A stretch of 64,000 nucleotides of DNA from Escherichia phage RB3, in the sequence record KM606994. One strand, given 5' to 3'. Both the position numbers and the translations under genes were made by a program. Each line of letters starts with the position of its first letter. The stretch's first letter is position 1. The notes under the pieces are model-generated. The model was not told where the DNA came from. It made no database searches and saw only the letters and a list, made by a program, of their open reading frames with translations. Shown here piece by piece: positions 49,308 to 55,054 of the stretch.

Positions 49308-50423
49308 ATGGAAAAATTTATGGCAGAGTTTGGACAAGGATATGTCCAAACGCCATTTTTATCGGAAAGCAATTCAGTAAGATATAAAATAAGCATAGCG
49401 GGTTCTTGCCCGCTTTCTACTGCGGGGCCATATGTTAAATTTCAGGATAATCCCGTTGGAAATCAAACATTTAGTGCAGGTCTTCATTTAAGAGTTTTTG
49501 ACCCTTCTACAGGAGCATTAGTTGATAGTAAGTCATATGCTTTTTCTGCTTCAAACAATACAACATCTACCGCTTTTGTCAGTTTCATGAATTCTTTGTC
49601 AAACAATAGACTTGTTGCTATATTAACTAGCGGAAAGGTTAATTTTCCTCCTGAAGTGGTATCTTGGTTAAGGGGAGCAGGAACTTCAGTTTTTCCATCA
49701 GATTCAGTATTGTCAAGATTTGACGTGTCATATGCTGCTTTTTACACTTCTTCTAAAAGAGCTATCGCATTAGAGCATGTTAAACTAAGTAATAGAAAAA
49801 GCACAGATGACTATCAAACTATGTTAGATGTTGTATTTGATAGTTTAGAAGACGTCGGAGCTACAGGATTTCCTAAAAGAACATACGAAAGCGTTGAGCA
49901 ATTTATGTCTGCGGTTGGTGGAACTAATAACGAAATTGCGCGATTGCCAACTTCAGCTGCTATAAGTAAACTTTCTGACTACAATTTAATTCCTGGTGAT
50001 GTTCTTTATCTTAAAGCACAACTATATGCTGATGCTGATTTACTTGATCTTGGAACTGCAAATATATCTATTCGTTTTTATGATGCATCAAATGGATATA
50101 TTTCCTCGACCCAAGCTGAGTTTACTGGGCAAGCTGGGTCTTGGGAATTAAAAGAAGATTATGTAGTTGTTCCTGAAAATGCAGTAGGATTTACGATATA
50201 TGCACAAAGAACTGCCCAAGCAGGTCAAGGCGGCATGAGAAATTTAAGCTTTTCTGAAGTATCAAGAAATGGCGGAATTTCGAAACCTGCTGAATTTGGT
50301 GTCAATGGCATTCGTGTTAATTATATCGGTGAATCCTCTTCACCTCCAGATATAATGGTACTTCCTACACAGGCATCGTCTAAAACTGGTAAAGTGTTTG
50401 GACAGGAATTTAGAGAAGTTTAA
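49308..50423 (+). CDS. 35: long tail fibre hinge protein gp35
   Basis: 371 aa; terminator downstream. Confidence 0.85.
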   Translation: MEKFMAEFGQGYVQTPFLSESNSVRYKISIAGSCPLSTAGPYVKFQDNPVGNQTFSAGLHLRVFDPSTGALVDSKSYAFSASNNTTSTAFVSFMNSLSNNRLVAILTSGKVNFPPEVVSWLRGAGTSVFPSDSVLSRFDVSYAAFYTSSKRAIALEHVKLSNRKSTDDYQTMLDVVFDSLEDVGATGFPKRTYESVEQFMSAVGGTNNEIARLPTSAAISKLSDYNLIPGDVLYLKAQLYADADLLDLGTANISIRFYDASNGYISSTQAEFTGQAGSWELKEDYVVVPENAVGFTIYAQRTAQAGQGGMRNLSFSEVSRNGGISKPAEFGVNGIRVNYIGESSSPPDIMVLPTQASSKTGKVFGQEFREV

Positions 50424-50427
50424 ACTG

Positions 50428-50456
50428 AGGGAGCCTTCGGGTTCCTTTTTTCTTTA
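50428..50456 (+). terminator. intrinsic terminator after gene 35
   Basis: GGAGCC-UUCG-GGUUCC followed by TTTTTTTCTTT. Confidence 0.7.
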
Positions 50457-50462
50457 TAAATA
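50455..50462 (+). promoter_or_regulatory. late promoter of gene 36
   Basis: TATAAATA ~24 nt upstream of gene 36 ATG, just after the gene 35 terminator. Confidence 0.7.
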
Positions 50463-51144: not shown

Positions 51145-54100
51145 ATGGCTACTTTAAAACAAATACAATTTAAAAGAAGCAAAACCGCAGGTCAACGTCC
51201 TGCTGCTTCAGTATTAGCCGAAGGTGAATTGGCTATAAACTTAAAAGATAAAACAATTTTCACAAAAGATGACTCAGGTAGTGTTATAGAATTAGGTTTA
51301 AAATATGGAGGAACAATTGATGGTTCTTTAACTGTTAATGGAAGCATAATTGGAAATTTAACAGGTAACGCTGCAACCGCAACGAAATTAAAAACAGCAC
51401 GAAAGATTAATGGTATATCTTTTGATGGGTCAAAGGACATTACCCTAACTCCATCTGACATAAATGTAAATAGTACAACATTTATAAAAAATAATGGTGA
51501 ATTACCTACTGATGCTAATTTAGATACGTATGGGCCCATTGAAGAATATCTTGGTGTTTGGTCGAAATCTACTTCAACAAATGCGCAACCAGCAAATAAA
51601 TTCCCAGAAGAAAATGCCGTAGGTGTACTAGAAGTATTTGTGGCCGGCCAATTTGCTGGCACTCAGCGTTATACTGTAAGATCTGGTAACGTCTATATTC
51701 GTTCCTTATCTGCTAAATGGAATGGCGTCGATGGTCCATGGGGTCCGTGGCGCAATATTCAAACTGGCACACGCCCACTATCAACTACGCTAGACTTGAA
51801 TACTTTAGGTGATGCTTCTCATTTTGGGTTATGGCGAAATAGTTCAAGTTCCATTGCATCATTTTCTCGAAATTACCCAGAAGAAGGTGGTCTCGCGCAA
51901 GGTCTTTTAGAAATTTATGAAGGTGGTAACTATTCTCGCACGCAACGTTATACTACCCGAATGGGTGTTGTATATGTTCGTTGTCTTGCTAGTGCATGGG
52001 ATCCAGAAGCTCCGAATTGGGGACCGTGGCAACAAGTAGGTATGGTTACTCCAAACACATTCTATGACGGGGATCTTAATAATTTTCGTTCTCCTGGCTT
52101 GTATAACATTTTAGGGACTGATGCCGTTATTAACCGTCCAGTTGCAGAAGGTGTTCCGGTTGAGATGACCGGATTGCTTGAGGTTAAACAGCGTGCTTCC
52201 GGTGGCGCTATTTTCCAACGTTTCACTACCGCAGGAACGGGTGCAACTACGCGATCTCGCGTGTTTGAACGTGCGATGACAAATAACATCTGGGGAAATT
52301 GGTACGAAGTATATACGTCCTATTCTATGCCGATCACTCTGGGTATGGGTGGTGTTAAATCTCAATTAGCGGAGCTAGACTGGCAAACCTTTGATTTTGT
52401 CCCTGGTAGTATGTTTAGTGTTCCTTTGAACAAAATAAAGAACATGCCAGCAAATATGGATTGGGGTGCGATTGACGGAAACTTGGTTATGTTTTCTGTC
52501 GGTCCTAGCGAACACACTAGCACAGGGCGTACTGTTCAGGTTTGGCGTGGTACTGTATCCCAGACAAACTACCGTTATTTTGTCGTTCGTGTGTTCGGTA
52601 ATTCTGGAAATATAACTTGTACAGTTCGACGCGTTGTTCTTGAAGATGGTAGCCACAAATGGACAGCGCAACAAGATTTTAATGGTGCAGTTAACTTCGG
52701 TGCTCCTACCAATTTTAACTCTACTGTTAACCTTAATAACACTACCACATTTAAAACAGAAGTTAAATTCCGCTCGTTGAATGCATTCCGTATGTATGGC
52801 GGAAAATTTGGTGCATTTTTACGTAATGATGGAGAGAGTCTTTATATTCTTTCCACCGACGAAAATGATCAAGATGGAAACTTTAATACAAATAGACCTT
52901 TCCGTTATGAATTAAGAACTGGTGATGTTACTTTGGGTGGTACTAGTGGTGCTAACGTTTTAAAATTAAAACGTGATTCTCTCACCGCATTTTTTGGTGG
53001 TGATATTAACATGAAAGGCTTGATGACTTTTGACGCCGGGCGTTTAGGATCACGAGATTATTTTAAATTTAACCATTGGGGTGATAGTAATAATGGTCGT
53101 GATAACATCATTCAGTTAGAAGATAGTCAAGGCGCTCATTTTTCCACTGAACGTACTTTAGCGACAGGTGCAATTAAAACTCGTTTCTTTGGCGAAACAT
53201 TCACTGATGGTACATTATACCTAAATCAGATGAATAATAGTTCTGAACGATTCTCTATTAATAATTGGGGAAATTCAGAAGTTGGTCGCCCGGCAGTGTT
53301 GGAAGTCGGTGATTCTAAAGGTTATCACTTCTATACGGAACGCAGGACAGATAACAGTTTGATGTTTGATGTTGCTGGCGATTTTACTGCGCATGGACCT
53401 TCCGGGATTACTATCAAAACCTCTACTGGTGCTCGCCATATCTGGTTTAGAGATGATAGCGATGCAGAAAAGGCTGTTATCTGGGCTACAGATGAGGGTA
53501 TTTTACATATACGAAATAATCATGGTGGTTCATTTAGTCATCACTTCCAGGGTGCAATGATTAAAGCGGGAGAGCGTGTTCCTTATGCCGGAGATCAAGG
53601 GCTTATTCGCGGTGAAGTTTCTGGTGGTGCTTATGTGAATTGGAGAGACCGCCCTGCTGGTTTGTTGCTTGACTGTCAACAAAGCGTTGATAGTGCTCAT
53701 GCTATTTGGAAAGCGGTTGATTGGGGGCGTAACTTCATCGCTGCTTTGGACGTTCATTGTCCCGGTGATAGTAATAATACTGCGGCAGCGATTCTCCATG
53801 TTCAGTCTGCTGATTATCAATTCCATGCAAGTGGAGAATTTCATGCCACTGGTAACGGAAACTTTAACGATGTTTATATTCGATCAGACCGTCGCCTCAA
53901 AGAAAACATCGAAGATTATATAGGAAATGCGTTAAGTTTGATTGGCAAACTGAAAGTGAAAACTTACGATAAAGTTAAATCTCTTAAGGACCGTGAAATT
54001 ATCGGTCATGAGATCGGCATTATCGCACAGGATTTACAGGAAATATTACCAGAAGCTGTAAAATCTTCAAAGGTTGGCAATCTTGATAATCCAGACGATG

Positions 54101-54237
54101 TTCTGACAATTTCTAACTCTGCTGTGAATGCTCTTTTAATTAAGGCTATTCAGGAAATGAGTGAAGAAATTAAAGAATTGAAAACGCCTCTCTTTACTAA
54201 AATTATTCGCAAAATTAGTAAATATTTTAAATTCTAA
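51145..54237 (+). CDS. 37: long tail fibre distal subunit gp37, T2-type with C-terminal intramolecular chaperone domain
   Basis: 1030 aa; N-terminus [13 protein letters not shown] as T4 gp37, remainder diverged; C-terminal ...[11 protein letters not shown]... auto-processing motif. Confidence 0.9.
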
Positions 54238-54271
54238 CAACAAGGGGGAAATGCCCCCTTTGGAGAAAATT

Positions 54272-55054
54272 ATGGCAGTAGTTGGTGTTCCTGGTTGGAT
54301 TGGTAGTTCATCCGTAAATGAAACAGGACAACGATGGATGAGTCAAGCAGCTGGTCAATTAAGATTAGGTGTTCCTTGCTGGATGAGTCAATTTGCAGGT
54401 CGCTCAAGAGAAATTATTCATACACTTGGAGCAGACCATAACTTCAATGGTCAATGGTTCCGAGATAGGTGTTTTGAGGCAGGTAGTGCACCTATAGTGT
54501 TTAATATCACTGGAGATTTAGTATCATATTCTAAAGATGTTCCTTTATTCTTCATGTATGGAGATACACCGAATGAATATGTTCAGTTGAATATACACGG
54601 CGTAACGATGTATGGACGTGGCGGTAATGGCGGTAGCAATAGTCCTGGTTCAGCTGGAGGTCATTGTATTCAAAACGATATTGGTGGGAGACTAAGAATT
54701 AATAATGGTGGAGCTATTGCTGGAGGTGGCGGCGGTGGCGGCGGCGGATATTATTCTCCTTTTTCACAAATGAGATTGACTTTTGGAGGTGGCGGCGGGC
54801 GTCCGTTTGGCGCACCGGGCGGATCTATTGATATGCAATCAGGAGCAACTGCTGGTACTATTTCTGCGCCTGGCGCAGGGTCTGTGAACGGTATCTATAG
54901 CGGCGGTGGCGGTGGCGAAGTTGGCTCCGCAGGAGGTAGATGTAATATTCGTGGTCAAGGATCTGAATACGATGGCGGAGCTGCTGGTTATGCCGTCATA
55001 GGGTCTACACCGACATGGCAAAACGTTGGAGCAATATATGGTCCAAGAGTATAA
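54272..55054 (+). CDS. 38: gp38 tail fibre tip adhesin, T2-type with glycine-rich motifs
   Basis: 260 aa from ATG with GGAG SD (track start 54251 lies inside a hairpin); poly-Gly tracts separated by variable segments. Confidence 0.8.

Follow-up and report, generated by a model that had tools for sequence, protein, structure and literature searches.

The window, as the whole 64-kb stretch of DNA analysed here will be called, was read as the final 64 kb of coliphage RB5, and genome-wide searches were run on the reconstructed RB5 genome of 168,394 bp. Its gene 37 has 100% identity with the annotated gene 37 of RB5, RB6, RB7, RB9, and RB10, whose GenBank records label gp37 just "long tail fiber distal subunit" (Table 1). 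Gene 38 begins 34 nt past the gene 37 stop codon. In a pattern search, the T4-type late promoter consensus TATAAATA was found at 50455..50462 on the + strand, upstream of gene 36, with no further copy from there to the end of gene 38, and thus no late promoter of gene 38's own in the region coding for the end of gp37. Since there is no other consensus late promoter before gene 37 or gene 38, this pattern suggests that genes 36, 37, and 38 are probably co-transcribed. Hairpins occupy the same position as the one between genes 37 and 38 in T2, T4, and T6; compared with shuffled sequences its stability is not significant (z -1.2). No gene on either strand overlaps 53884-54237, except for a mechanical 84-aa ORF in the +2 frame (53669-53923) that touches the region.

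Table 1. Coordinates of the features at the gene 37-gene 38 locus (positions in the window).
Feature	Position	Strand	Basis
Gene 37, long tail fibre distal subunit precursor (1030-aa gp37 plus stop)	51145..54237	+	ORF listing, identity to RB5/6/7/9/10 gene 37
Mature gp37 as predicted, residues 1-913, up to and including the DVYIR tip strand	51145..53883	+	Homology to the cut sites in S16 and T5 and to the site predicted for the fPS phages
D909-V-Y-I-R913, C-terminal tip strand after cleavage, on which the gp38 N-terminal domain would dock	53869..53883	+	Identity to fPS DVYIR^S (PMC7917993)
Intramolecular chaperone (IMC) / Peptidase_S74 domain, residues 914-1030 (117 aa), predicted to come off after the trimer has formed	53884..54234	+	Pfam; profile matches 6f45_A/8jov/7dc3/3gud; AF2 model and Foldseek
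PF13884 core match, aa 914-973	53884..54063	+	Pfam, model positions 1-58 of 58, E 7.1e-15
Ser914 codon, predicted nucleophile, first residue of the released domain	53884..53886	+	Invariant in relatives; equivalent of T5 Ser1264
Lys919 codon (Ser+5), putative general base in the Ser-Lys dyad	53899..53901	+	Invariant in relatives; equivalent of T5 Lys1269
Long C-terminal IMC helix, aa 991-1027, predicted trimeric coiled-coil nucleus, with amphipathic basic tail	54115..54225	+	DSSP on AF2 model
Intercistronic stem-loop AGGGGG-AAAUG-CCCCCU, between the gene 37 stop and the gene 38 Shine-Dalgarno sequence	54243..54259	+	RNA fold
Gene 38, T2/T6-type tail-fibre adhesin, 260 aa, predicted to cap the processed gp37 tip	54272..55054	+	Pfam; RB5 annotation "tail fiber adhesin", same ATG

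The extreme C-terminus of this distal long tail fibre subunit (residues 914-1030 of 1030) is a genuine Peptidase_S74, or IMC, domain. The match to PF13884 covers the full model, with 55.5 bits against a cutoff of 22. With phmmer, the gp37 domain matched gp37 of phage S16 (6f45_A) at E 6e-7 over its whole length, and a profile built from 21 homologues found 6f45_A (3e-17), 8jov (3e-16), the MYRF ICA domain 7dc3 (4e-10), and the GA-1 IMC 3gud (3e-5). The 3gud chain starts with SDERHK, which aligns with S914 and K919 of gp37 and with SDRRIK of S16. In the AF2 monomer model (pLDDT 81), beta-hairpins lead into a helix of 37 residues; DSSP puts the strands at 44-95 and the helix at 97-133 of the modelled fragment (fragment numbering). 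The model's best 11 Foldseek matches in the PDB were exclusively to 7dc3, 3gud, and 3gw6, all IMC structures. The probability was 1.00 for 7dc3, for 3gud, and for the top-scoring 3gw6 chains (3gw6 as a whole, 0.95-1.00), and TM scores reached 0.65; the T5 pb1 structures 4UW7 and 4UW8 were absent from the top matches to this model. T5-like fibres do appear among the tblastn matches, at 35-38% identity. The original prediction of a C-terminal self-cleaving chaperone domain on gp37 is thus supported by sequence, profile, predicted fold, and the putative catalytic dyad. It also placed the domain correctly, except that its start at 53887 is the codon of Asp915, while both the domain and the Pfam match start at Ser914.

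The residues expected to carry out cleavage are strongly conserved. S914, D915, L918, and K919 are invariant in an alignment of 21 close relatives (alignment A1), and 80 of 80 distant IMG/VR relatives have S-D-x3-K at the start of the domain, always with 87-121 residues from the Ser to the stop codon. The Ser/Lys dyad is therefore strictly conserved in all 101 sequences examined (21 + 80). Two apparent exceptions were rejected. One was an internal IMC with 736 aa after the Ser (locus L058), an ORF-extension artefact in which the IMC actually ends a 346-aa collagen-like fibre gene. The other was the T6 record AF052605, with Asn for the catalytic Lys, taken as a sequencing error because Lys stands there in the modern T6 genome AP018814 and AF052605 contains an X as well. 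In T5 the active site is completed by upstream residues, Arg1250 of a neighbouring chain (the "folding sensor") and Asp1239 (PMC4690869), and the same paper describes a proposal of this T5-like mechanism for K1F. Upstream of Ser914, gp37 has no Arg at the T5-equivalent spacing and its sequence is not alignable to T5; the sole upstream residue common to gp37 and S16 is an Asp at position -5.

It is very likely that residues 914-1030 act in the way known for such domains. What was determined here is the identity of the domain, the conservation of the dyad, the predicted fold, and the genome context; trimer nucleation, autocleavage, the scissile bond, and gp38 docking are carried over from homologues. 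In S16 and T5, and reportedly in K1F, such a domain is needed for folding and cleaves itself off after trimerisation. The long C-terminal helices would form a trimeric coiled coil that brings three nascent gp37 chains into register, and the alpha/beta parts of the IMC would clasp the adjoining fibre tip, with folding running toward the N-terminus. Once the tip had trimerised correctly, Ser914, activated by Lys919, would attack the Arg913-Ser914 bond in each chain, releasing the 117-residue IMC trimer. The new C-terminal DVYIR strands would then form a flat tip on which the Trp-bearing N-terminal domain of the gp38 adhesin could dock.

The scissile bond should be the one just before the serine. 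T5 pb1 is cut between Thr1263 and Ser1264 by a Ser/Lys mechanism, the serine leaving with the chaperone (PMC4690869), and the serine is likewise absent from the mature K1F protein according to the T5 paper. S16 gp37, the closest solved relative, is described as cut at DLNVS^SDRRIKK (PMC7917993; ^ marks the cut), and for phages fPS-2/65/90 IMC autocleavage has been predicted at DVYIR^SDGRLK, the strand serving for gp38 docking (PMC7917993). By homology with these three sites, mature gp37 is predicted to be 913 aa long, one residue shorter than the ~914 aa first proposed, and the IMC 117 aa; the earlier figure of ~116 residues came from the later start, together with an end coordinate, 54237, that takes in the TAA stop. 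Note however that in the model of the phi29 appendage the serine stays on the mature protein (PMC4690869), so the exact bond in gp37 is not certain. Cleavage at Ser914-Asp915 instead, leaving the serine on a 914-aa fibre with the domain and its function unchanged, is unlikely given the T5 and K1F precedents and the S16 and fPS sites, and given that the released GA-1 IMC chain 3gud_A begins with Ser.

More distant from the proposed scheme are three readings that deny the domain, its activity, or its autonomy. Short motifs arise by chance, and the window translated in all six frames contains SDxxxK 18 times. The nine-position motif S-D-x-R-x-K-x-N-I, in contrast, occurs there once, with its Ser codon at 53884, and any match to it appeared in just 3 of 200 mononucleotide shuffles of the window; together with the Pfam match (E 7e-15), the PDB profile matches, the matching fold, and homologues in 1113 phage records, this rules out a chance motif without a real domain. 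A real domain could be kept in the virion uncleaved, as a permanent structural cap or an inactive or regulatory relic, but here the dyad and the entire Pfam core are intact, a gp38 adhesin with a Gp38_N docking domain needs an exposed tip, and a later account (PMC3157838) reports processing for the related proteins of T2 and T6, which makes retention very improbable. Hardly more can be said for removal of the C-terminus in trans, by a host or phage protease, with the S74 similarity marking a folding role only. That account does cite the 1986 work on T2 only as "proteolytic processing"; against it, S16 gp37 is described as autocleaving (PMC7917993), and strict conservation of the dyad in every sequence examined would be unexpected for a pure folding module. 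Autocleavage by the domain itself is thus the preferred reading.

The gene downstream fits this arrangement. RB5 gp38 matches Pfam GP38 (PF05268, polyglycine adhesin family) at E 1e-70 and Gp38_N at E 1.3e-19; it is near-identical to T6 gp38, with an identical N-terminus. A T4-type gp38 chaperone hidden elsewhere was ruled out by searching the reconstructed genome, where tblastn found no homologue over the full 168,394 bp (best E 7.2); nor was a second IMC copy found in the RB5 genome search. The expectation that folding would bypass the T4-style gp38 route is therefore supported, with an adhesin-type gp38 in place and an IMC mechanism with which the T4-type chaperone would not be needed. It does not extend to gp57A. 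This general fibre chaperone is encoded in RB5 (RB5_141; annotated and translated), so that the IMC would replace the gp38-chaperone step only, and gp57A is probably still required.

The predicted docking tip recurs in other phages. VYIR/SD was found in 11 of 11 phages compared, with the full DVYIR in 8 of them, and the [DN]VYIR/SD junction in all eight other gp38-encoding phages compared. Among the 80 IMG/VR loci, a Gp38_N gene lies downstream only in the two that have NDVYIR/SD. In two Krischvirus phages, Makalu_002 and JK32, the same NDVYIR/SD tip and IMC occur without an adjoining gp38 gene, so IMC release is not always for gp38 docking.

The end of the IMC has a history partly separate from its beginning. 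The RB5 domain is a mosaic, with a recombination junction within the IMC at about 54094. Over its first 60 residues it resembles another subtype, at 80% to P0001; the final 38 are 95% T6-type. With the junction there, only the IMC tail travels with gene 38. The subtype of the last ~40 residues tracks that of the gp38 N-terminus in all nine phages sampled, from three genera: IMCs ending in ...KISKYFKF go with T6-type gp38 and those ending in ...VKELESKLM with T2-type, the VYIR tip being common to both. Besides nucleating the trimer, the C-terminal helix and tail might touch gp38 transiently, for example to hand the exposed tip to the adhesin, which would produce such a pattern, but this is unlikely. 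The gene 37-gene 38 locus is well known for recombining at conserved motifs. Given such recombination, and with under 60 nt between the two segments, physical linkage explains the pairing more simply.

Beyond annotation, the importance of these observations is small. If the prediction is correct, the last 117 residues of gp37 should be absent from virions. For host-range engineering of RB5 or T6-type phages, or for recombinant fibres, the IMC would be needed in cis and a C-terminal tag on gp37 should be avoided; gp38 swaps would be constrained by the DVYIR docking tip.

The mechanism is not new, having already been published for the family. S74 autocleavage followed by gp38 capping has been established in S16; for T2 and T6 it is implied, and for the identical junction of the fPS phages it has been predicted. 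T4 offers a contrast. T4 gp37 is encoded at the same locus, is 79% identical to gp37 here over its N-terminal 66 residues, and must likewise trimerise a long fibre from its C-terminus, but the rest is alike only in two short internal stretches. It has no S74 domain, carrying a Collar domain and a His-rich needle instead, and the cited fibre literature does not describe it as cleaved; conversely, gp37 here has no Pfam match to Collar or Phage_fiber domains. T4 gp38 is a separate, unrelated chaperone that is not built into the fibre and has no homologue in RB5.

Among the more distant IMCs, T5 pb1 has in common with gp37 the Ser-x4-Lys dyad, the C-terminal position, a coiled coil with beta-hairpin "tentacles," and release after trimerisation (PMC4690869), the structure and release being predictions for gp37. 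The T5 IMC, of ~133 aa, clasps a bullet-shaped receptor-binding domain, and no separate adhesin docks later. The K1F endoNF (3GW6), GA-1 neck appendage (3GUD), and MYRF ICA (7DC3) domains have the same fold as the gp37 IMC at only 11-25% identity. These endosialidase, GA-1, and MYRF domains are founding members of Peptidase_S74; whereas the client here is the tip of a T-even fibre, theirs are tailspikes, appendages, and a transcription factor of eukaryotes.

The closest parallels are in T2, T6, S16, and the fPS phages. T6 gp37 is 71% identical overall to gp37 here, and in T2 and T6, as here, PF13884 directly follows [DN]VYIR. For both, C-terminal proteolytic processing followed by a gp38 cap is described (PMC3157838, citing Drexler, Riede and Henning 1986). 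The consistency with T2 processing noted in the original prediction is well founded, since T2 gp37 carries the same domain after NVYIR/SDIRLK (S74 E 3.3e-15), which explains its reported processing. The T2 IMC differs from the 117-aa one here in its length of 99 aa and in its VKELESKLM helix end, paired with a T2-subtype gp38 N-terminus. In fPS-2/65/90 the DVYIR^SD junction is identical, with SDGRLKI there and SDRRLKE here, both cleavages being predictions, but the upstream fibre body is unlike gp37 here. S16 (PDB 6F45; Dunne et al. 2018, cited through PMC7917993, PMC7289586, and PMC9608196) has the same locus order, a distal fibre gene followed by a PF05268 gp38 adhesin, and its gp37 shares the S-D-R-R-[LI]-K start; its last ~113 residues are described as autocleaved, exposing the gp38 docking surface (PMC7917993). 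The tip strand is DLNVS in S16 and DVYIR here, and the IMC is 113 aa against 117 aa. Where the alignment stops S16 has KKQLKELKD, while the RB5 IMC carries an additional amphipathic basic tail at its end, a feature common to T6-type gp37.

The C-terminus of gp37, the distal long tail-fibre subunit, belongs to the family of intramolecular chaperones (IMC; Peptidase_S74) by membership, catalytic dyad, predicted fold and genomic context. The original prediction of such a domain was right, since the window, translated in six frames, has a single copy of the nine-position motif S-D-x-R-x-K-x-N-I (any match in only 3 of 200 shuffles) and PF13884 ("Chaperone of endosialidase") covers aa 914–973 over all 58 model positions (55.5 bits, cutoff 22; E 7.1e-15). 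Its placement needs correcting: the predicted start, 53887, is the Asp915 codon, and the domain begins at Ser914 (codon at 53884).

Coordinates of features in the window and in comparison loci
Feature	Record	Position	Strand	Length
Gene 37	window	51145-54237	+	1030 aa
Gp34_trimer in gp37	window	52660-52905		aa 506-587
gp35 hinge protein	window	49308-50423		
Mosaic stretch	window	54094 to about 55770		
IMC tail compared with gp38	window	54115-54234		
g37-g38 stem-loop	window	54243-54259		
gp38 start	window	54272		260 aa
Longest gp38 ORF, start	window	54251		267 aa
Tandem collagen-like fibre genes	L058	348-2855		488 + 346 aa
ORF downstream of IMC fibre	L011	3791-4327		~160-180 aa
ORF downstream of IMC fibre	L012	4330-4815		~160-180 aa
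Krischvirus Makalu_002	L093	1-1810		
JK32	L094	1-1811		

In a 5.8-billion-protein collection 28 relatives were found, most with PF13884; aligned with 20 of these, gp37 shares invariant Ser914, Asp915, Leu918 and Lys919. Searched as a single sequence against the PDB, the whole C-terminal domain aligns with 6f45_A, a distal fragment of S16 gp37 (E 6e-7), with weaker matches to 8jov, a tail fibre, and to 7dc3, the ICA domain of MYRF. With the alignment profile these reach 3e-17, 3e-16 and 4e-10, and the GA-1 neck-appendage IMC 3gud, whose crystallised, released chain starts SDERHK, is matched at 3e-5. An AlphaFold2 model of aa 895–1030 (mean pLDDT 81) has short helices, two beta-hairpins and a C-terminal helix of 37 residues; its top 11 Foldseek matches in the PDB are exclusively intramolecular-chaperone structures (MyRF ICA 7dc3 at E 1e-6 and TM 0.65, GA-1 3gud, endosialidase 3gw6), with only noise beyond them.

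By tblastn the IMC is present in 1113 phage records, including T6 gp37, T5-like L-shaped fibres and streptococcal PblB proteins. In IMG/VR, a scan with a degenerate pattern gave 80 distant relatives (29–45% identity), all with S-D-x3-K at the IMC start and the IMC terminal in the ORF, 87–121 residues from Ser to stop. A replacement of the dyad Lys in T6 was considered, as the 1998 g36–g38 record AF052605 reads SDSRLNIN (Asn) at about codon 886 of gene 37, with an X close by. In the T6 genome of 2018 (AP018814) the sequence is SDSRLKIN, with the catalytic Lys, and sequencing errors in AF052605 are the probable explanation. In locus L058, two tandem collagen-like fibre genes with long SGxSGxSGF repeats each have a terminal S74 IMC of their own and are followed by glycosyltransferase-like genes.

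Gene 37 is identical at the nucleotide level (100%) in the Tequatrovirus coliphages RB5, RB6, RB7, RB9 and RB10; coordinates in the RB5 record KM606995.1 less 104394 give window coordinates, the window being its final 64,000 nt (overlap checked). The gene order g34-g35-g36-g37-g38-t is the classical T-even long-tail-fibre cluster. The Gp34_trimer domain (PF21446, E 5e-15) is also found in gp37 of T2, T6 and, weakly, T4, a known internal homology between proximal and distal half-fibres. The hinge protein gp35 has a Pfam ILEI match (PF15711, interleukin-like EMT inducer/FAM3 fold) at aa 58–112 (33.4 bits, cutoff 27; E 6.7e-8).

Cleavage before the serine is documented in relatives. In T5 pb1 the Thr1263–Ser1264 bond is cut, Lys1269 activating Ser1264, and the Ser goes with the chaperone (PMC4690869); that paper reports the same for K1F, and only the phi29 appendage is modelled otherwise. 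S16 gp37 is cut at DLNVS^SDRRIKK with removal of 113 residues, and in 2021 cleavage of phages fPS-2/65/90 was predicted at DVYIR^SD (PMC7917993). The RB5 junction, DVYIR|SD, is identical to the latter, and the expected products are therefore a mature gp37 of 913 aa and an IMC of 117 aa, by homology with T5, S16 and the fPS phages, in place of the ~914 and ~116 aa proposed. The suggested fit with processing of T2 gp37 holds up: in T2 (AP018813) the same domain (PF13884 at aa 1243–1300, E 3.3e-15) immediately follows NVYIR, and the stretch from the Ser to the C-terminus is 99 residues long. An estimate made in 1986 was reportedly about 120 residues. C-terminal cleavage of T2 and T6 gp37 followed by gp38 capping is summarised in PMC3157838, citing Drexler et al. 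(1986), the processing of T2 gp37 having been known since then.

The gene after g37 encodes a T2/T6-type adhesin (Pfam GP38, E 1e-70; Gp38_N, E 1.3e-19). Its longest ORF begins seven codons upstream of the ATG annotated in RB5, but the conserved T2/T6 N-terminus MA[VI]VGVPGW (here MAVVGVPGW) and an upstream GGAG Shine-Dalgarno indicate the downstream start. The S74 domain is missing from T4 gp37, and T4 gp38, which is unrelated to this adhesin, has no homologue in the complete rebuilt RB5 genome (best E 7.2), where there is exactly one IMC. The inference that folding bypasses the T4-style gp38 route is thus sound, although the general fibre chaperone gp57A is retained (RB5_141), so that the IMC replaces only the gp38-chaperone step. 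Between the g37 stop and the g38 Shine-Dalgarno lies a stem-loop, AGGGGG-AAAUG-CCCCCU, of non-significant energy relative to shuffles (z -1.2); hairpins rich in G+C also occupy this site in T6, T2 and T4, with loops UUCG (T2, T4) and CUUUG (T6).

The RB5 IMC is a mosaic of two subtypes, its first two-thirds differing in subtype from its end: over aa 914–973 identity is 80% to one subtype against 58% to the T6 type, while over the last 38 residues (aa 993–1030) it is 95% to the T6 type and 62% to the other. At ~54094, within IMC-coding g37, nucleotide identity to T6 (AP018814) leaps from ~60% to >90%, and it stays mostly high (68–100%) through g38, with >90% in t (holin). Across the window and loci L089, L004 and L090–L097, the subtype of the tail, which cleavage would take off the mature fibre, co-varies with that of the gp38 N-terminus in nine of nine phages, KISKYFKF pairing with T6-type gp38 and VKELESKLM with T2-type. 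This tracking is most simply explained by plain linkage; a transient contact between the IMC tail and gp38 seems very improbable. VYIR, the tip that would stay on the mature fibre, is common to both tail subtypes.

Downstream gp38-related ORFs accompany just two of the 80 environmental IMC fibres (L011 and L012), exactly the two with the junction NDVYIR|SD. Both match Gp38_N (E 1e-17 to 2e-20) and neither matches the polyglycine GP38 adhesin domain; they may represent another kind of receptor-binding module that uses the same attachment site. Among cultured phages, a gp38 gene follows [DN]VYIR|SD in nine, from three genera. Krischvirus Makalu_002 and JK32 have NDVYIR|SD and a 109-aa IMC with no adjacent gp38 adhesin, just a 79-aa hypothetical ORF ("Dc5") before the holin; the IMC is therefore a general module and gp38 capping an add-on. 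In the related FL04 (L092), gp38 is present, and a hypothetical ORF of 80 codons also precedes the holin.

Going by S16, T5 and the reports on K1F and GA-1 in their papers, the IMC helices would nucleate a coiled coil and the domain would clasp and template the fibre tip; after correct trimer formation Ser914/Lys919 would autocleave the R913–S914 bond, setting the IMC free, and Gp38_N would dock on the DVYIR platform. The domain is caught automatically by Pfam, and the RB5 GenBank record is silent on it. Nothing here is new in kind, the gp37 IMC being already known. The IMC family dates from 2007–2010, and the combination of an IMC on a T-even-type gp37 and a gp38 adhesin was described for S16 in 2018, as cited in PMC7917993.
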